NCBI GenBank assembly: GCA_038882975.1
Contig: JAVZNE010000004.1
Coordinates: 37,127-101,126, forward strand
Direction of reading: 5' to 3'
Length of the DNA stretch: 64,000 nt
Source: Candidatus Bathyarchaeia archaeon
GTDB lineage: Archaea; Thermoproteota; Bathyarchaeia; Bathyarchaeales; Bathycorpusculaceae
Under the pieces are notes generated by a model. The model was not told where the DNA came from. It searched no databases and saw nothing but the letters and a program-made list of their open reading frames with translations. The translations under genes and the position numbers were made by a program. Below, piece after piece: positions 11,529-61,016 of this stretch; position 1 is the stretch's first letter, and each line of letters opens with the position of its first letter.

Positions 11529-12563
11529 ATGTCTATTAGAAAAGCTTTGAGCATTGTTTCGCGGGTCTTGGCTCCAGATAAGCCCTATCATGTTCAATGG
11601 ATGATTACGAGGAAATGCAATTATCGCTGTAGGGGATGCAACGTTTGGCGAGAGCAAGACAGCAAAGAATTGACAACCGAAGAGATCAAACGCGGGCTGG
11701 ATATTCTTCGAAAACTTGGCGTTGTGGAAGTTTTGATATCAGGCGGCAACCCGCTTTTAAGGGCAGACATCGACGAAATAATTGAGTATGCATCACGCTA
11801 TTTCTTTGTAACAGTCTATGATAACGGCAGCTTTGCAGCCAAAAAAATCGACGCTTTACGCCGTGCAAACTTTGTTGCAATTTCAATAGACAGCCTAAAC
11901 CCAGAAAGAAATGATTACATAAGGGGCGTCAAAGGAGCATGGGAAAAAGCCATGGAGACTGTTGAAAAACTTCACATGGAAGGAATTAACGTAAGCGTAA
12001 CGCCAACGATTTCGCAAGCCAACCTTTACGAGATTGTCGATTTCACCAAATATTTCTTGGACAGAGGAATACCTGTCTGGTATTCTTTATACTCTTATGA
12101 CTCGCCAAACCATTCAAACTCGCTTTTTAAAATAGGTAAAGCGGAAGACGCCTTCTTAATAAGGGATAAAGAAGCCATGGTTAAGGTTTGCGACGCACTT
12201 CTCGAAATGAAACAAAAGAACGACAATGTTTTAATTACAACAAAGGTTTTGGAAGCTGTTAAACACCTTTATTTAAACAACAAGAGAATTTGGAAGTGCC
12301 GCGCACTGCAGAATTTCTTTGTTATAAATCACCGAGGCGAAGTCGCCGGCTGCCACCTTCACGAACCAGTTGCCTCAATTTTTGAGCTGCCAAACCTTTG
12401 GGAAAGTGAAAGATTTGAAGCCTTTAGGAAGAAGTACAGAGATTGCGAAAGATGTGCATATCTTTGTTACATTTTTTACTCGATTCACGGAAGTGTTGCT
12501 GGCAACATTGAAATAGTTAAGGATAAGTGGCGCAGTGTAAGATTCTTCTTAAAGAGACGCTAA
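11529..12563 (+). CDS. Radical SAM protein with C-terminal SPASM/twitch-like cysteines
   Basis: CNYRCRGC (CxxxCxxC), SGGNP, SIDS; C-terminal C..GC..CxxCxxxC. Confidence 0.9.
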   Translation: MSIRKALSIVSRVLAPDKPYHVQWMITRKCNYRCRGCNVWREQDSKELTTEEIKRGLDILRKLGVVEVLISGGNPLLRADIDEIIEYASRYFFVTVYDNGSFAAKKIDALRRANFVAISIDSLNPERNDYIRGVKGAWEKAMETVEKLHMEGINVSVTPTISQANLYEIVDFTKYFLDRGIPVWYSLYSYDSPNHSNSLFKIGKAEDAFLIRDKEAMVKVCDALLEMKQKNDNVLITTKVLEAVKHLYLNNKRIWKCRALQNFFVINHRGEVAGCHLHEPVASIFELPNLWESERFEAFRKKYRDCERCAYLCYIFYSIHGSVAGNIEIVKDKWRSVRFFLKRR

Positions 12564-13540
12564 CGAGCGGCATTTAATATTTCTGAAACAGCCCTTTCAA
12601 CTGCCTGGCGACTGTTCAGTTTTGGCTTCCATCCCAAGCTTTTGAGCCTATCGATTTTTAAGAGCATGACTTTTACGTCGCCCTTCCAGCCTCTTCCTCC
12701 ATCGACCCCTCCGGTAAAAACGTATTGCACATCTCTCAGTCCCATCTTTGTGCAAACAATATCTGCGATTTCCTTCACAATTATTTGGTCTTCAGAGCCA
12801 ACATTGAATATGTTTACCCTTTCATTTCCTGCGTTTAAGCCTGTTAGGATGGCATCTATACAGTCCTCAACATACAGGTAGGATTTGGTTTGAGTGCCAT
12901 CACCAAGTATCTCTAGCCTATTCGGATTTTCCCTGAGCTTTTTAATGAAATCGTATATGACTCCATGCTGCGACCTCAAACCTACAATGTTTGCCAGTCT
13001 ATAGATTATGGCTTTGAAGCCGCATGTGTTGGCGTAGGCTGATATGAGGGCTTCAGCAGCCAGCTTTGAGGCACCGTAAGTTGAGATAGGTTTTAGTGGA
13101 GCGTAATCCTCTGGGGTGGGTATTAATTCTGCATCTCCGTAAACGGTTGAGGAAGAAGTGAAAACCAAGATCTTGACCCGCCCAACTTTGCGAATCGCCT
13201 CAAGCAGGTTAAATGTTGCAAGCACATTTTGCTCATAATGAATCTTGGGGTCTTCGGAGCCAACACGAACTTCTGGGTTGGCAGCAAAATGAAAAATAAT
13301 GTCACATCCCTCTATGGATCTAACAATCTCTTTGGGAGATAGCAGGTCGCCATGTATAAATTTAAAATTAGGTGCGTTTAGCCATTCCTTTACATTTTCA
13401 ATTGTACCGGAGCTTAAGTTGTCAAATACAACAACTTTCAGGCCCATCTCGCACAGCTTATCAACTAAGTGGCTCCCTATGAAGCCAGCGCCTCCTGTTA
13501 TAAAAACTCTTTCTAAGTTTAGGCTTGGAAACATTTTCAT
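12560..13540 (-). CDS. NAD-dependent NDP-sugar epimerase/dehydratase (GalE-like)
   Basis: GGAGFIGSH, SSSTVYG, YGASK. Confidence 0.92.
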   Translation of the reverse strand: MKMFPSLNLERVFITGGAGFIGSHLVDKLCEMGLKVVVFDNLSSGTIENVKEWLNAPNFKFIHGDLLSPKEIVRSIEGCDIIFHFAANPEVRVGSEDPKIHYEQNVLATFNLLEAIRKVGRVKILVFTSSSTVYGDAELIPTPEDYAPLKPISTYGASKLAAEALISAYANTCGFKAIIYRLANIVGLRSQHGVIYDFIKKLRENPNRLEILGDGTQTKSYLYVEDCIDAILTGLNAGNERVNIFNVGSEDQIIVKEIADIVCTKMGLRDVQYVFTGGVDGGRGWKGDVKVMLLKIDRLKSLGWKPKLNSRQAVERAVSEILNAAR

Positions 13541-13586: not shown

Positions 13587-14612
13587 TTATTGCTTCCCCC
13601 TTTTTCTTGCCAATGCCAACCATAAATGATCGCATTCTGGGCGCGGAAGACTTGTTAGGCGATTATCTCTGTGAACCATTAGACGCTTTCTCGGGTTGCT
13701 TAAAAACTCGCCAATAACAGAAGCCTCAATCTTCTCCATTTTCAATTTCTCAATGACAAGTTCTGTGCATTCCGGCTTTGCCGCAATAAGCATAGCTCCA
13801 GAACTTATCAGCTGTAACGGATCTATTACCAGAAGTCTGCAGATTTCCGCCGTTTCTTCCGCCACCGGAACTTCTTCTTCAAAAACTTTAACGCCGAGGT
13901 TTGAGGCATCTGCCATTTCATGGATGCCTCCGAGGACACCGCCTTCCGTTGGGTCGTGCATTGCTTCTACTCCACCTGTTTTAAAGGCTGTAATACCATC
14001 TTTAACAACGCTTATTCTCTCAAAAAACTTCTGTGCAGACTTTAACAGCTTATCATCGGCACCCATATTTAGAAGCAGATTATAACGTTCAGTTGCAAGT
14101 ATGGCTGTTCCTTCTATGCCAGCACTCTTTGTTAAAATGAGTTTGTCTCCCGGCTTGGCTCCACCAGCTGTGACGTAACACCCCTTATCTGTTATTCCTA
14201 GGGCGCATCCTATAACAACTGGATTGGCAAGTCCAGGCGTTACCTCGCAGTGCCCACCAGTAATTGCCATTTTCAAATCTTTTGCAGCGGCATCCATCTG
14301 AGAACAGATAACCTCTATGATTTTTCGATCAGCATTTTCTGGAAGGAGTATGCATGAAAGGAAAAACGCTGGTTCCACACCGAAAGTGGCAACATCATTC
14401 GCATTGATGTTCACCGCAAGCCAGCCAATACGCTCAACAGCTCCAGTAATGGGATCCATCGAAGCTACTAGGGATCTCTTGCCCAAATCTATGACTGCGC
14501 CGTCAAAACCAACTGAAGGCCCGAGGACAACTTCCGTCCGTTTAAATCCCAAATTTTTAAAGACAACCTCTGTAAGTATTTCGACAGGGATCTTTCCCAT
14601 GGGCAACTTCAT
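13587..14612 (-). CDS. AIR-synthase (PurM/HypE/ThiL) superfamily ATP-dependent protein, unknown substrate
   Basis: DPIT, NANDVATFG, GGHCEVT, MHDPTEGG; lacks the HypE C-terminal PRIC. Confidence 0.85.
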   Translation of the reverse strand: MKLPMGKIPVEILTEVVFKNLGFKRTEVVLGPSVGFDGAVIDLGKRSLVASMDPITGAVERIGWLAVNINANDVATFGVEPAFFLSCILLPENADRKIIEVICSQMDAAAKDLKMAITGGHCEVTPGLANPVVIGCALGITDKGCYVTAGGAKPGDKLILTKSAGIEGTAILATERYNLLLNMGADDKLLKSAQKFFERISVVKDGITAFKTGGVEAMHDPTEGGVLGGIHEMADASNLGVKVFEEEVPVAEETAEICRLLVIDPLQLISSGAMLIAAKPECTELVIEKLKMEKIEASVIGEFLSNPRKRLMVHRDNRLTSLPRPECDHLWLALARKRGKQ

Positions 14613-14635
14613 TTTTAGCCCTTTTCAAAGTTCCT

Positions 14636-15355
14636 TTAGATTTTAAATATCCTTTGTGCATTTTGCTCTAAGACCATATCAAGCTGCTTTTTTGTTAAAC
14701 CAGCAACTTCAACTTTTTTAATTTCAAAGGCAGGGTGGCCGAAAGGCATATCAGACCCGTAAATAACTCTGTTCTCACCGATTTTTAAAACAGCCTCCTT
14801 TATTTTGCTATGCATAGGCATCGCAGATGTTTCTAGTATTATGTTTTCATGTTTTTGTGCAACTTCTATGGCTCCGTTAATGTAAACTATATGCCCGTGG
14901 CCCATGTGGCCCAAAATAATTGAGACATCTGGGTACACGTCAGCTAAGTTTCCGAAGTGCCACGGCAAAGACCATGGTGGATGACCGCAATGAAAAAGAA
15001 CTGGCACCTTATATTTACGAGCTTGATCCATTATAGGGTAAATGATGTCTTGATCCGGCAAGTACGCGTTAAGTAAGGGGTGCATCTTTATTCCTCTGAA
15101 ACCCCATTTGTTAATTGCTTTGTCTACTAGTTTCACAGCATCTTCGCCGTCGTGGGGGTTGACCCAGACAAGGCCCACAAGTTTCTCTGGATATAACTTA
15201 ATTGCGTTTTGGGTCAATTGATTTGGTAAGGAAAAGACTATACACTTTTTTATGTTGCATTCATCCATAATACGCAGCATTCCTTCAACGTCTAATTCAA
15301 CGTTGAAAACGGGAAATTTGCCAAGATGAGTGTGGGAGTCTATAACCATCATCAA
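14636..15355 (-). CDS. Amidohydrolase family (TIM-barrel metallohydrolase)
   Basis: IDSHTH, KMHP, FHCG, GHMG, YGSDMP. Confidence 0.9.
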   Translation of the reverse strand: MMMVIDSHTHLGKFPVFNVELDVEGMLRIMDECNIKKCIVFSLPNQLTQNAIKLYPEKLVGLVWVNPHDGEDAVKLVDKAINKWGFRGIKMHPLLNAYLPDQDIIYPIMDQARKYKVPVLFHCGHPPWSLPWHFGNLADVYPDVSIILGHMGHGHIVYINGAIEVAQKHENIILETSAMPMHSKIKEAVLKIGENRVIYGSDMPFGHPAFEIKKVEVAGLTKKQLDMVLEQNAQRIFKI

Positions 15356-15390
15356 TCCTCCACATTTAACTCGGTTTTAGGCCACTAATT

Positions 15391-15930
15391 TTATAGCAAG
15401 TATTCTATTTTTAGTGATCGCCTTAATATTAACAAAATCGGCACCGTCACGATAATGTCTATAGCGCTTAGAGGGAAAAATGTGATTAAGTCTAAATACG
15501 CTACAGGACCAAACAAAAAGAAATCATAAAGAAAATAACCTACGTTTTTCTCGATTGCGGCGAAAACCATTGCTAGAAGTTCGGAACGTCTCGGTTGTGT
15601 TGGAAATAAGCGCCTTAAACTGCCCAGCAGAAAACCCATGAAACCGCGAATAACTATTGTTGCCGGAGCCCACTGTATAAAACTACTACCCCACAGGGGA
15701 TTCCAAACATCAAAGAGCATGGCACCAACACCACATGCGAATAATCCTACAAGAGGCCCACAGAGAATGGCCGCTATAAAAGATGCGATGTCTCCCAGAT
15801 GCCAAACCCCTAAAGGTTTTGGCATAGGAACAGATATGGCTGTCATGGCGTAAACAAGTGCTGTCATGACACCCATAGTTGCTATACCTTTTGAAGGTGA
15901 CACGTTTACACGGAATACTCTCGCGTTCAC
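15391..15930 (-). CDS. ECF transporter substrate-specific (S) component
   Basis: About 6 TM, 179 aa; HLGD..FIAAIL.GP..G....GVG..L.D pattern of HmpT/PdxU-like S components. Confidence 0.8.
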   Translation of the reverse strand: MNARVFRVNVSPSKGIATMGVMTALVYAMTAISVPMPKPLGVWHLGDIASFIAAILCGPLVGLFACGVGAMLFDVWNPLWGSSFIQWAPATIVIRGFMGFLLGSLRRLFPTQPRRSELLAMVFAAIEKNVGYFLYDFFLFGPVAYLDLITFFPLSAIDIIVTVPILLILRRSLKIEYLL

Positions 15931-15959
15931 GTTTTATCCCACATGCGTTGGGAAATTTA

Positions 15960-15998
15960 GTTAAGATATAACTTTACTATATAAAGATTTAGCTTAAC
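15960..15998. promoter_or_regulatory. Imperfect 17-5-17 inverted repeat overlapping the TATA box of the ECF S-component operon (candidate operator)
   Basis: gttaagatataacttta-ctata-taaagatttagcttaac, 14/17 arm positions complementary; minus strand TTTATATA at its centre. Confidence 0.5.
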
Positions 15999-16023: not shown

Positions 16024-17427
16024 TTACAACAGAAGTTTTAAGTCATCCAGTGCAGTCAAAACTTTTCTCCCACGCCTCGTTATTTTGTAGTGTTTCCTAC
16101 CGTTTTTTATGCAGCTTACCACCAATCCTCTTCGGGACAGTTCATTTAGGTGTTGGTATATGGCGGCTCTTGTCATTGTTTTTCCGAGTTTTTTCCATAA
16201 ATCGTAGCCATAGGTGTCCCTTTCACTTAAGATCCTAAGTATTTTCGCTTTTGTACTTACTTCCAATCCAATAACTGCTGTTTTCTTTTTCTTTGTTAAA
16301 GCTTGAAGGATGTCTGTTGCTTTTAGACCGCTTCCAGTTATTAAGCATACAACCTTGTCTTTTTTGTCGATAACCCGCTCGTTCATAAGTTTCTTGAACG
16401 CCGCATACGTTGCTGCGCTTGCTGGTTCGGCGAAGATGCCTTCATGTTTTGCGATTTCTTGTTCTGCTGAGAAGATTTCTTCATCTGAAACCGCTATGGC
16501 GGTTCCTTTAGATTCTTTGATGGCTTTAAGGGCCAGTTTGCCATACCATGGTTTTTTAACGAGGATGGCGAGCGCGTGAGTCGAAGGTTTTGTTTTGAGG
16601 GCTGGCTCTTGAATGTTTTGCAGGTATGCGTTTACAATTGGTGAGCATCCTTCTGCTTGAACGCCGACCATCCTTGGAATGGATTTTATTTCGCCTCTTA
16701 TTTCAAGCTCTTTATAGCCTTTCCAGACGGCATATAGTGTTCCGCCGCTTCCCATGGAGGCTATAAACCAGTCTGGAACGCCTATTTGCTCGTAAACTTC
16801 GTAAGCTATGGTTTTTAGGGCTTCCATAGATAGCGGGTTAAATTCGGCGGATCCTTGATACCAGCCCATTTCTTTGGCTAGTTTGTCTGCCCTTTTCAGC
16901 GAGTCGTCTACTATTTCCCCATATTCCTCGATTACAGCGTCGTAGATGAGCATTTGGGCAAGTTTTCCCATATCCACGTTTTTCGGCACTACAACATGGC
17001 ATGTTAATCCAGACTTTGCACAGTATGCAGCCAAAGAAGCCCCAAGATTTCCATTTGTGGCACAGACAACTGACCCATACCCTAAATCTACGGCGTTGGA
17101 AATAATTAAGGCTGCACACCTATCCCTAAAGGAATTTGTTGGGTTTCGCGTCTCATCCTTAAAATGTAGATTGCTTAGCCCAACGTTTTTGGCAAGCCTT
17201 CTCGCCTTAATGAGTGGGGTTCCCCCCTCTCCCATGGAAATAACATTTCTAACTTTTGGCAGAAGTTTCTTGTAACGCCAAAAAGTGAAGGCGCCGACAA
17301 ATCTCGCTTTTTTGAGCGTTTCATCATCGCACTTGCACTCTAGTGGACTGCCACATTCCTTACAAATATGCTGTGGAGGATAAACCTCAAATTTTGCACC
17401 GCAAACCGTACACACCAGATAAAACAT
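16024..17427 (-). CDS. Threonine-synthase-like PLP-fold protein fused to C-terminal winged helix (PadR/ArsR-like); Schiff-base Lys replaced by Arg
   Basis: Zn ribbon CxxC..CxxC, GEGGTPL, NPTNSFRDR (canonical SFKDR), EPASA, TGSGLK, then YGYDLWKKL..AAIYQHLNELSRRGLV..GRKHYKITRRG. Confidence 0.85.
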   Translation of the reverse strand: MFYLVCTVCGAKFEVYPPQHICKECGSPLECKCDDETLKKARFVGAFTFWRYKKLLPKVRNVISMGEGGTPLIKARRLAKNVGLSNLHFKDETRNPTNSFRDRCAALIISNAVDLGYGSVVCATNGNLGASLAAYCAKSGLTCHVVVPKNVDMGKLAQMLIYDAVIEEYGEIVDDSLKRADKLAKEMGWYQGSAEFNPLSMEALKTIAYEVYEQIGVPDWFIASMGSGGTLYAVWKGYKELEIRGEIKSIPRMVGVQAEGCSPIVNAYLQNIQEPALKTKPSTHALAILVKKPWYGKLALKAIKESKGTAIAVSDEEIFSAEQEIAKHEGIFAEPASAATYAAFKKLMNERVIDKKDKVVCLITGSGLKATDILQALTKKKKTAVIGLEVSTKAKILRILSERDTYGYDLWKKLGKTMTRAAIYQHLNELSRRGLVVSCIKNGRKHYKITRRGRKVLTALDDLKLLL

Positions 17428-17500
17428 TATGCAACCTCGTCTCATTTTTCTAACAGTTAGATTTAGCGATCATGTCTATGAGGCTTTCTAAATTTTAGAT

Positions 17501-31719: not shown

Positions 31720-32790
31720 GTGAAAAAGAACAAACATATAACAATGCTACATGGCGCTGGCGGAACAGTCATGCATGACCTCGTCAAAAACTACATTCTA
31801 AAATATTTTGGCAGCGCTGAAAGCACAAGTTTTGAAGTGCCTCTCGAGGCTTTAGATGACGCTGCAGTTGTTGGCAACATTGTTTTGAAGAGCGACTCCC
31901 ATGCCGTAAAGCCCATCTTTTTCCCAGGCGGGGACATTGGACGCTTGGCTGTTTCCGGCACTGTTAATGATATTGCTGTTTTAGGAGCAGAACCACATGC
32001 TCTGGCGTGCGGCTTTATCTTAGAGGAGGGCTTGCCAATAAAAGATTTTGAAAGAATTCTTGTCAGCATGCAGCAGACGTGCCAAGAAGCAAACGTGAGC
32101 ATTGTTACAGGCGACACAAAAGTCGTTGAAAAGGGAAGCCTAGGCGGTTGCGTAGTAAACGTTTCTGGAATTGGCGGAAGAACAGAAGCCTTGGAAAAAA
32201 ATTTGGCTGTTGTTAAACGATTTAGAGATGACTTCAAAGCACGCTGGATTCTTGATTCAAACCTTAAACCGGGAGACAAAATAATATTGTCCGGCACAAT
32301 AGGCGACCATGGCTTGGCAGTTTTATCAGCCCAGGAAGGGTTAAGCTTTGTAAGCGAAATAAAATCTGATGTTAAACCCTTGAACCACCTAATCCAGAGC
32401 TTATTAGGTGATGTTGGTGGCATAGTTACCATGAAAGACCCAACACGCGGCGGGCTGGCAGACGCCCTAAACGAGTTCAGCGAAAAATCAAAAGTAGGTA
32501 TATTAATTCACGAAGAAAGAATCCCTATAAAGGAGAATGTGAGGGCAGCATGCGAAATGCTGGGCATAGACCCGCTTGAGGTCGGCAACGAAGGAAAAAT
32601 AGTTATAGGCGTTGTAATGGAGAAAGCAGAAGAAATTTTAAAATTTCTAAAAGCTACGAAGGAAGGCAGAGATGCCGAGATTATAGGAGAAGCTGTTAAA
32701 GAGTTCGACGGGGTGGCAATGCAAACAGTGGTAGGCGGAAAAAGAATAATAGCAAGACCTATCGGCGACCCTGTTCCAAGAATATGTTAG
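31720..32790 (+). CDS. hypE: Hydrogenase maturation carbamoyl dehydratase HypE
   Basis: HGAGG, FFPGGDIG, TGDTKVV, DPTRGG, C-terminal PRIC. Confidence 0.97.
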   Translation: MKKNKHITMLHGAGGTVMHDLVKNYILKYFGSAESTSFEVPLEALDDAAVVGNIVLKSDSHAVKPIFFPGGDIGRLAVSGTVNDIAVLGAEPHALACGFILEEGLPIKDFERILVSMQQTCQEANVSIVTGDTKVVEKGSLGGCVVNVSGIGGRTEALEKNLAVVKRFRDDFKARWILDSNLKPGDKIILSGTIGDHGLAVLSAQEGLSFVSEIKSDVKPLNHLIQSLLGDVGGIVTMKDPTRGGLADALNEFSEKSKVGILIHEERIPIKENVRAACEMLGIDPLEVGNEGKIVIGVVMEKAEEILKFLKATKEGRDAEIIGEAVKEFDGVAMQTVVGGKRIIARPIGDPVPRIC

Positions 32791-59806: not shown

Positions 59807-59933
59807 TTTTCTCCCTTCTCCTTTCGGCGTGAGGTTCGAATCCGCCTGCCCCCAAAAACCTTTGTTGATTTCTTTTGGTGAATCTTTAAAAGGCGCTTTT
59901 TGTAGATTGGTGTAGTTGTGCGGGGGTTGTTGT

Positions 59934-61016
59934 TTGTCCAGCGAGTTTACTTATGCTGGTGCTGGTGTTGATAGGGGGTTGAGGGTTAGGGCTAAGGGTG
60001 CTTTGCGCTTTCTGCGGAGGACTTATGGTTTTAGTCGTTATGGTGGGGTTTTGCAGCTTCCTTATGGGGTGATTTTTCCTTTTCGCGATGGCGTTTATTT
60101 GGATCTTGTTGTGGAGGGTGTTGGCACTAAGGTTTTGGTGGCTCAGTTAGCCGATAAGTACGATACTATTGGTGTTGATGGTGTTGCTATGGCTGTTAAT
60201 GATGTTATTCGTTCCGGCGCTAAACCTTTAGCCGTTGTTGATAATATTCATGCTCAAGTTTCCAACCCAAGTTTGGTTAGAGAGTGGATGAAGGGCATAG
60301 TGAAGGGGGCTGTTGAGGCTGAGTGTGTTGTTCCGGGCGGCGAGATTGGTGATGTTGCTGAGTTGATTAAGGGTTTGGTGGAGGGGAAGGGTTTTGACAT
60401 GGTTTTTGCTTCTGTTGGTGAAGTTTCTAAGGACAAAATTATTTATGGGAGGGATGTTAAGCCTGGTGATGTTGTTGTTGGTTTGCGGAGTTCTGGAATT
60501 CACAGTAATGGTGTGACATTGGCGCGGAGGGTTTTGTTTAAGTGTTGGGGTGGCATATACGACCCGTTTGACGTTCCTGAACCTCTTGAAAGAGAACTGG
60601 TTTATGAGGTTTTAGAGCCTACTAGGATTTATGTTAAGCCTTTCCTGCGGGTTGCAGACGAGGTGAGGGTTAAGGCTGCTGTGCATATTACTGGTGATGC
60701 CTATTTGAAGTTTGACCGTTTAATGCTTTTCTCGAAGGGGATAGGCTTCGAGTTTAACAATTTTAAGCCCCAGCCCATTTTTGAGGTGATTCAGAGGGCT
60801 GCTTCTGAGCTTGGCGGCAAAATATCGGATGAAGAGATGTTTAAGACTTTTAATATGGGCTGGGGCTTCGCGGTAGTGGTTGACAAGCAAGATGTGGATA
60901 GGGTTGTTGACGTTTTGGAAAGGTCTGGGGTGCATGCCGAAGCTATAGGATGTGTGACAAGCACTGGTGGAATCCGAATATTCTATAAAGGCAAGAGTAT
61001 GCTTTTGAAAAGGTAG
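59934..61016 (+). CDS. purM: Phosphoribosylformylglycinamidine cyclo-ligase
   Basis: YAGAGVD, EGVGTK, SSGIHSNG, HITG, TFNMGWG. Confidence 0.95.
   Translation: MSSEFTYAGAGVDRGLRVRAKGALRFLRRTYGFSRYGGVLQLPYGVIFPFRDGVYLDLVVEGVGTKVLVAQLADKYDTIGVDGVAMAVNDVIRSGAKPLAVVDNIHAQVSNPSLVREWMKGIVKGAVEAECVVPGGEIGDVAELIKGLVEGKGFDMVFASVGEVSKDKIIYGRDVKPGDVVVGLRSSGIHSNGVTLARRVLFKCWGGIYDPFDVPEPLERELVYEVLEPTRIYVKPFLRVADEVRVKAAVHITGDAYLKFDRLMLFSKGIGFEFNNFKPQPIFEVIQRAASELGGKISDEEMFKTFNMGWGFAVVVDKQDVDRVVDVLERSGVHAEAIGCVTSTGGIRIFYKGKSMLLKR

Follow-up and report, generated by a model that had tools for sequence, protein, structure and literature searches.

The locus and its genes

The 64,000-nt stretch analysed here (the window; contig JAVZNE010000004.1, positions 37,127 to 101,126, of the Candidatus Bathyarchaeia archaeon assembly GCA_038882975.1, a genome of 1.42 Mb with a completeness of 94.7%) carries on its minus strand three open reading frames (ORFs) separated by 35 and 23 nt, which encode an S component of an energy-coupling factor (ECF) transporter, termed S*, a small amidohydrolase and a PurM-fold ATP enzyme, and which appear to serve the salvage of vitamin B6 (Table 1). 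This co-oriented arrangement had been described in a first-pass annotation of the same DNA and was confirmed, as was the presence upstream, at a distance of 93 nt, of a gene fusing a threonine synthase (ThrC) fold to a winged helix-turn-helix (wHTH) domain. Also borne out were the statements that the PurM-fold protein lacks the PRIC ending of HypE, which the HypE of the window does carry, and that true hypE and purM genes lie elsewhere in the window, both exceeding their NCBIfam cut-offs.

The short gaps predict that the three genes probably form an operon, which probably has its own promoter because the 93-nt gap contains a TATA box and an operator; the TATA-like box was recognised by eye from the archaeal promoter consensus. 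For S* and for the amidohydrolase the exact start codon (GTG/TTG) is uncertain within a few triplets, and homologues start slightly later. A downstream epimerase gene at 12560-13540 was considered as a further member of the unit and rejected, as only one of 29 relatives has it behind the PurM-fold gene. A scan for bacterial promoters and terminators gave no signal above shuffled sequence, and a short inverted repeat at 15937-15953, between the operator and the S* start, did not exceed chance.

Table 1. Coordinates of the genes and regulatory elements discussed, as positions in the window
Feature	Position	Strand	Remarks
PurM-fold ATP enzyme, candidate B6-vitamer kinase	13587-14612	-	341 aa; AIRS + AIRS_C; "AIR synthase family" subfamily
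Small amidohydrolase-superfamily metalloenzyme, partner of S*	14636-15355	-	239 aa; PF04909 (Amidohydro_2), 91 bits
ECF S component (S*)	15391-15930	-	179 aa; PF07155, 72 bits
22-bp palindromic operator (predicted)	15958-15979	.	4 mismatches to family consensus
Archaeal TATA-box-like element	15978-15985	-	overlaps operator by 2 nt
ThrC-fold/PadR-type wHTH gene, putative PLP-sensing repressor	16024-17445	-	PALP 259 bits + PadR 46 bits
hypE	31720-32790		in window; above NCBIfam cut-off
purM	59916-61016		in window; above NCBIfam cut-off

Regulator and operator

The triple very probably belongs to a vitamin B6 regulon. A 22-bp palindrome is common to the upstream regions of S genes, and a matrix built from 32 sites in 115 such regions, with the loci of this window excluded, found a single strong site in the genome, the one in front of S* (21.8 bits; runner-up 14.0). 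The decisive evidence is the link to pdxS in held-out loci rather than this genome score alone: the operator stands 39-91 nt 5' of pdxS, at 17-27 bits, in 4 of 28 pdxS loci. These four account for every pdxS-bearing genome in the sample of the organism's own order, and the remaining 24 loci score at most 8.8 bits. The operator is absent from the thiC-thiDN operon of the genome.

In the regulator, Arg107 replaces the Schiff-base lysine of the SFKDR motif (alignment to the threonine synthases 2ZSJ and 2D1F), which removes it from the threonine synthases; nor does it belong to PdxR/MocR, being a PALP domain with a C-terminal PadR-type wHTH rather than an N-terminal GntR domain with an aminotransferase. 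Its orthologues in other loci also have Arg, and a second ThrC-wHTH clade has Ile, Leu or Met at this position. We infer that the protein acts, like PdxR, as a repressor sensing pyridoxal 5'-phosphate (PLP); control by the neighbouring pseudoenzyme, as suggested in the first-pass annotation, is supported. The second lysine-less clade flanks pdxST in 6 of the 24 pdxS loci without the operator, and in one locus (L207) such a gene adjoins a co-oriented run pdxS-pdxT-S*-amidohydrolase.

Second-clade genes were seen beside pdxST or S*-amidohydrolase at L201:2819-4288, L207:659-2215, L263 and L266-L269, and a different short palindrome was seen by eye in several of their promoters. Genome-wide, four PALP matches were found (L254-L257), none of which resembles a lysine-bearing threonine synthase; the gene annotated thrC would therefore fill the threonine pathway step wrongly.

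Two gene modules at the locus

The first-pass annotation had treated the triple as one operon, but a fixed, conserved unit of the three genes was not borne out: the locus has arisen by recombination between two modules, the S*-amidohydrolase pair and an older arrangement of regulator, S gene and PurM-fold gene. In the genome comparison, which was made by hand and in which S* was defined as S genes at least 50% identical to the present one, the amidohydrolase lies directly behind S* in 20 of 20 genomes, followed by the PurM-fold gene in two. A metagenome set of 80 loci (75 of them close amidohydrolase orthologues, with many near-copies) gave the same picture, S* preceding the amidohydrolase in 71 of the 72 loci with enough upstream DNA and the PurM-fold gene lying behind the pair in 19 of the 63 with enough downstream DNA (9 co-oriented, 10 convergent). 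Neighbourhood conservation thus upholds the pairing, and the triple recurs but seldom, so that it was rejected as a fixed unit. The amidohydrolase orthologue itself is present in 35 of 201 sampled genomes of the class and in none of the 27 other genomes of the organism's family.

The older locus is visible among the 29 closest PurM-fold loci, of which 23 have an S gene directly upstream, 1 has it one gene off and 1 divergently, and 4 have none that was seen; the identity of these S genes to S* is no more than about 30-40%. A second pair of related subfamilies, S' with a 41-47% identical amidohydrolase, shows the same arrangement in 8 of the 8 class loci inspected and again in L071 and L245. 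It precedes the PurM-fold gene in L071, and the operator also stands 5' of S' in L245 and L342.

The importer S*

S* falls in PF07155, the PdxU/HmpT group (72 bits against a cut-off of 26.7), as a distinct subfamily. Its only match in the PDB is 4HZU_S (E 1.5e-5), HmpT/PdxU2 of Lactobacillus brevis. The six pocket residues of this pyridoxamine binder (E41, H84, Q87, Y120, N140 and Q143; PMC4860826) correspond in S* to D47, R95, M98, Y132, F151 and L154, the positions having been transferred through the 4HZU_S alignment and by eye past its end. S* thus keeps the acidic Glu41 position and Tyr120, has Arg in place of His84, Met of Gln87, Phe of Asn140 and Leu of Gln143, and falls outside the HmpT/PdxU2 pocket type. 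All six positions, or close equivalents, are retained in 39 canonical S sequences; among 66 S* sequences the acidic residue is found in 59 and the Tyr is kept, with Arg, Met, Phe/Leu and mostly Leu elsewhere. His44 and Lys128 are additional invariant residues of S*, and Arg95 and Lys128 occur in 66 of 66. Because these pocket residues have changed, a different ligand is predicted, probably a modified vitamer that may be anionic or altered at C4'.

S* is the sole gene of the genome matched by a canonical S query, and three weaker S-like genes lie elsewhere in other contexts. The transporter is of the group II type, with an unlinked CbiQ/EcfT gene and two ATPase ORFs on contig C1. Another ECF S-like gene (L361:1492-3189, genome contig C9) directly precedes a GHMP-kinase-like gene that by eye is pantoate kinase-like. 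In L002:747-1487, L018 and L024 the canonical S component measures about 250 aa and continues past PF07155 into a C-terminal membrane extension.

The amidohydrolase

The second protein has the features of the Amidohydro_2 superfamily, namely a TIM barrel with an HxH motif, His on strands 5 and 6 and Asp on strand 8, and its metal site is complete. H8, H10, K90, H92, H122 and D202 are invariant in 84 sequences, and H150 is found in at least 90% of them. The top structural matches are 3CJP (CAC3332; Z 27.1, root-mean-square deviation (rmsd) 2.0, 221 residues aligned) and 3IRS (BB4693; Z 26.5), both uncharacterised, followed by ACMSD/LigW decarboxylases and lactonases at Z 22-24. The fold is shared with all of these, with an identity of at most 29%, and no function can be transferred. 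Despite the ACMSD/LigW-like fold no conserved pocket Arg was seen; in enzymes of that type, an Arg presumably binds the substrate. Plasmid homologues are at most 30% identical.

The enzyme likely acts on a B6 derivative, and its product should be pyridoxal or pyridoxamine because no PdxH was found in the genome. Any single named substrate is doubtful: a conjugate of pyridoxamine or pyridoxal that is deacylated or ring-opened is unlikely, interconversion of the lactone and acid of 4-pyridoxate slightly more so and phosphoester hydrolysis improbable, the rest of the odds going to other or non-B6 reactions.

In genome G445 (L359:3246-8131) an LLM-class oxidoreductase, a 46% identical amidohydrolase homologue, a CrtO-like FAD enzyme and a gene resembling pyridoxamine-pyruvate transaminase (372 bits) are clustered, and this cluster possibly serves B6 conversion or catabolism. 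Two related amidohydrolases in tandem lie divergent from the PurM-fold gene in an Anaerolineales genome, and a comparable tandem lies beside an LLM oxidoreductase in G103 (L096:3089-4590, L347:3625-5201).

The PurM-fold enzyme

The PurM-fold protein scored below the cut-off of all 16 matching NCBIfam models. It is neither HypE (114 bits against 251.6 for TIGR02124), ThiL (84 against 184 for TIGR01379, another gene of the genome scoring 266), SelD (73 against 125 for TIGR00476, with no Cys before Lys7) nor sll0787/COG2144 (40 against 321 for TIGR04049), and as an AIRS/AIRS_C protein it does not have the ribokinase fold of PdxK/PdxY (PF08543, TIGR00687). No CblS model was among the 16 matches, although the model library may not contain one; CblS presumably contains a PurM-type domain. 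The structure model of the PurM-fold protein (pLDDT 96.8) matched HypE best (Z 38.4, rmsd 2.0, 318 residues aligned), with SelD and ThiL at Z about 30. It shares with these three the fold and the acidic metal/ATP residues, and true HypE, PurM and ThiL are encoded elsewhere in the same genome. Invariant in the family are K7, D37, D53, D73, G120-H121 and H219-D220; in the alignment to the SelD profile, K7 falls close to Lys20, a residue that we take to be functional. Matches in the ESM Atlas carried generic names only.

Genomic context points to B6. The PurM-fold gene lies directly upstream of pdxST in G007, and in an Anaerolineae locus (L100) it lies upstream of PdxR (370 against an NCBIfam cut-off of 320) and ECF S-AA-T genes, in a genome in which no pdxS was found. 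In Haloferax volcanii the gene (HVO_RS04010) is transcribed divergently to one for an aminotransferase that scores highest with the pyridoxamine-pyruvate transaminase family. The class V aminotransferases of the present genome and of L090 were rejected as such transaminases, as they are without the glutamate of the H. volcanii and G445 proteins; the meaning of that glutamate and the identity of 2Z9U are assumed here. In Firmicutes one locus of the family was covered, and it has no B6 neighbour. The COG2144 gene of YrdX regulons sits in a DsrE-nitrilase-radical SAM-GNAT cluster (PMC5320631), and the context here differs.

A sister paralog with 33% identity is present in 30 of 81 genomes of the organism's order, is absent from this genome and adjoins ThiT in 24 of 24 fetched loci, which makes it a candidate thiamine-activating kinase. 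In the tree, a Haloarcula homologue encoded next to a thiamine-binding protein clusters with this paralog (support 0.93), and together these observations suggest that members of the family activate vitamins and are each matched to an S component; monophyly of the B6-linked branch was without support in the same tree. In many of the paralog loci (L316-L339, with the paralog at about 1500-2500 of each) a KaiC-like ATPase gene lies between or nearby, the cluster occurring in 18 of 24. A HAD phosphatase is fused to or beside the PurM-fold enzyme in P0067, L076:6614-7363 and L109:1960-2664, possibly as a kinase/phosphatase pair for vitamer homeostasis.

Vitamin B6 supply and phyletic profile

Neither pdxS (profile cut-off and tblastn) nor pdxJ, PNPOx (PdxH) or a PdxK/Y kinase was found in this genome. 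Across the 201 sampled class genomes, pdxS exceeds its cut-off in 29 and a TIGR00687 (PdxK/Y) kinase was found in none, so that the PLP supply of the class presents a pathway hole. The genome has its own thiC, thiDN and thiL, and its only strong PF08543 match is ThiDN, within the thiC operon.

The PurM-fold gene has a match in 178 of the 201 class genomes at E<=1e-30, a count that may include the sister paralog. Among 151 Anaerolineae it occurs in 57 of 63 pdxS-less and 48 of 88 pdxS-bearing genomes, so that 6 genomes have neither gene where 19 would be expected (Fisher p 2e-6, a value that exaggerates the significance since related genomes are not independent samples); a TIGR00687 kinase was found in none of the 151, ThiD2-type PdxK not having been searched there. 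In good genomes of the organism's own class the counts, made by hand, are 98 of 102 pdxS-less and 15 of 19 pdxS-bearing (p 0.02), and three of the four pdxS-bearing genomes without the gene come from one family. The genomes behind these profiles are incomplete and related by kinship, which weakens the association. The adjacency to pdxST, PdxR or ECF-S genes in several lineages, together with the enrichment in pdxS-less Anaerolineae, makes the PurM-fold gene the best candidate pyridoxal/pyridoxamine kinase of the genome; from its context, phyletic profile and fold, phosphorylation of the 5'-hydroxyl of these vitamers is its probable function.

Proposed salvage route and alternatives

Combined, these results argue with high probability for a real, regulated B6 salvage unit with a good candidate for the missing kinase, and make it reasonably likely that the triple is a B6-scavenging operon of an archaeon without de novo PLP synthesis. 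At low PLP, the lysine-less ThrC-wHTH protein would leave the operator beside the TATA box. S*, energised by a shared EcfAA'T module encoded elsewhere in the genome, would then import a B6 derivative that, judging from the pocket changes, probably carries a modification at C4' and may be anionic; the amidohydrolase would turn it into a usable vitamer, pyridoxal or pyridoxamine; and the PurM-fold enzyme, standing in for PdxK/PdxY without being their orthologue, would use ATP to phosphorylate the 5'-hydroxyl. The import-hydrolyse-activate route of the first-pass annotation is thereby supported and narrowed to B6. Its thiamine alternative becomes very unlikely because the operator precedes pdxS, S* and the amidohydrolase follow pdxST in L207 and thiC, thiDN and thiL are all present; the handover from amidohydrolase to PurM-fold enzyme is conjectural.

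A more specific version, which is speculative and improbable in its entirety, has S* importing 4-pyridoxate or 4-pyridoxolactone, the amidohydrolase interconverting lactone and acid, an aldehyde:ferredoxin oxidoreductase-family enzyme (the genome encodes four) reducing the acid to pyridoxal and the PurM-fold enzyme producing PLP. A 2026 preprint describes 4-pyridoxate and its lactone as waste that most bacteria cannot salvage (10.64898/2026.01.20.700305).

Several observations weigh against a B6 salvage unit ending in a kinase. The best structural match of the PurM-fold protein is HypE, not a kinase, and its gene lies behind the S*-amidohydrolase pair in only 19 of 63 loci and 2 of 20 genomes. 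An ECF-S neighbour was present in 6 of 80 mostly bacterial loci, five of them from one close clade, and no more than 2 of 30 Anaerolineae loci had a gene of B6 type at a distance of up to 1.5 kb; the contexts in Acaryochloris, Acetoanaerobium and Halobacterium have no B6 link. The Haloferax aminotransferase is under its family cut-off (232 of 600) and ties in the PDB with alanine-glyoxylate aminotransferase. S* retains two of the six HmpT pocket residues, with one conservative change and three lost, so that its ligand may be a non-B6 compound. The genome's operator copy is degenerate, 1 of 50 permuted matrices reached the same score, and 7 of 8 S'-amidohydrolase loci are without a site of 15 bits. 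Lastly, some ThiD-family enzymes phosphorylate pyridoxal (PMC9997740), and the genome's ThiDN could in principle do so.

The alternative that survives best, although with a small probability, is a chance fusion, in which S* and the amidohydrolase serve a non-B6 compound and replaced the ancestral S gene, so that only the regulator and the PurM-fold gene would be B6-related. The altered S* pocket, the missing orthologue in the 27 family genomes and the frequent occurrence of the pair without the PurM-fold gene would all fit. Yet the pair retains the operator where the PurM-fold gene is not adjacent, follows pdxST in L207 and, in L179, L183 and L185, is found together with a canonical S gene that is under this operator as well; moreover, S* is all that a canonical S query matches in this genome, and the G445 homologue of the amidohydrolase lies two genes from the pyridoxamine-pyruvate-transaminase-like gene.

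Two further explanations are each rather improbable. S* could import phosphorylated vitamers (PLP or pyridoxamine 5'-phosphate), with the amidohydrolase as a phosphoester hydrolase or editor and the kinase reserved for free vitamers. The invariant Arg95 and Lys128, the usual lack of linkage between the pair and the kinase gene and a possible bimetal site with Lys90 in the amidohydrolase speak for such import, but the pocket positions at which S* has diverged were modelled close to the amine of pyridoxamine (PMC4860826), the amidohydrolase has no conserved pocket Arg, and, unless some other reason existed, importing a phosphate only to hydrolyse it would be futile. Alternatively, the PurM-fold enzyme could activate a carboxylate or amide with ATP by HypE/PurM chemistry, for example on 4-pyridoxate, leaving the kinase step to ThiDN. 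HypE is indeed its closest match in fold and sequence, and ThiDN is present, but the S genes that accompany this enzyme are canonical, HmpT-like ones in which the pyridoxamine pocket is retained, and its sister is accompanied by ThiT, a setting in which salvage needs a simple kinase step.

Thiamine-precursor salvage, that is, import of hydroxymethylpyrimidine (HMP) or N-formyl-aminomethylpyrimidine followed by deformylation and phosphorylation, is very unlikely: HMP was the first ligand assigned to HmpT (PMC4860826) and the Haloarcula homologue lies beside a thiamine-binding protein, but the operator precedes pdxS and not the thiC-thiDN operon, the thiamine genes thiC, thiDN and thiL are present, and the thiamine-linked homologues form a sister clade absent from this genome. 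Alpha-ribazole salvage of the CblT/CblS type (10.1101/342006) shares the logic of an ECF S component with a kinase, but can almost be dismissed, as the recurrent neighbours of the PurM-fold gene include no cobamide gene, cobA/cbiA-type genes lie downstream only in H. volcanii and the regulon leads to pdxS.

Comparison with known systems and implications

The proposed B6 salvage unit resembles the PdxR-PdxKU locus of Firmicutes (PMC11619246, PMC5320631) in joining a PLP-sensing regulator, a PF07155 S component and a vitamer kinase; it differs in that the regulator is a lysine-less threonine-synthase fold with a C-terminal wHTH rather than a GntR-aminotransferase, the candidate kinase has the PurM rather than the ribokinase fold, and an amidohydrolase is added. 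CblT/CblS (10.1101/342006) is likewise an S component with a salvage kinase, but regulon and neighbours here are of B6 rather than cobamide. The salvage logic is thus already known from these systems; new here are the non-orthologous regulator and candidate kinase and the extra amidohydrolase. In the literature covered, from which subscription papers and bioRxiv supplements were mostly absent so that an earlier description may exist, no link of the PurM-fold family or the ThrC-wHTH regulator to B6 was found. A keyword search of the available supplements of PMC5320631 and PMC9997740 returned only the unrelated COG2144 cluster, and the available main text of PMC9997740 mentions neither AIR synthase nor PurM. 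The same paper notes that an uncharacterised B6 kinase may exist and counts 848 genomes without a predicted B6 route.

If the proposed route is correct, it would assign a function to a widespread family that bears no annotation beyond "AIR synthase family protein", counts 795 representatives at E<=1e-30 and occurs in 105 of 151 Anaerolineae; its sister clade would gain a role in thiamine salvage, and archaea a PLP-sensing regulator made from a dead enzyme. Should the 4-pyridoxate version hold, spent B6 would be converted back into the cofactor by means of a new kinase family with one branch for B6 and one for thiamine. The S*-amidohydrolase pair, finally, hints at an environmental form of B6 for which no salvage is known.

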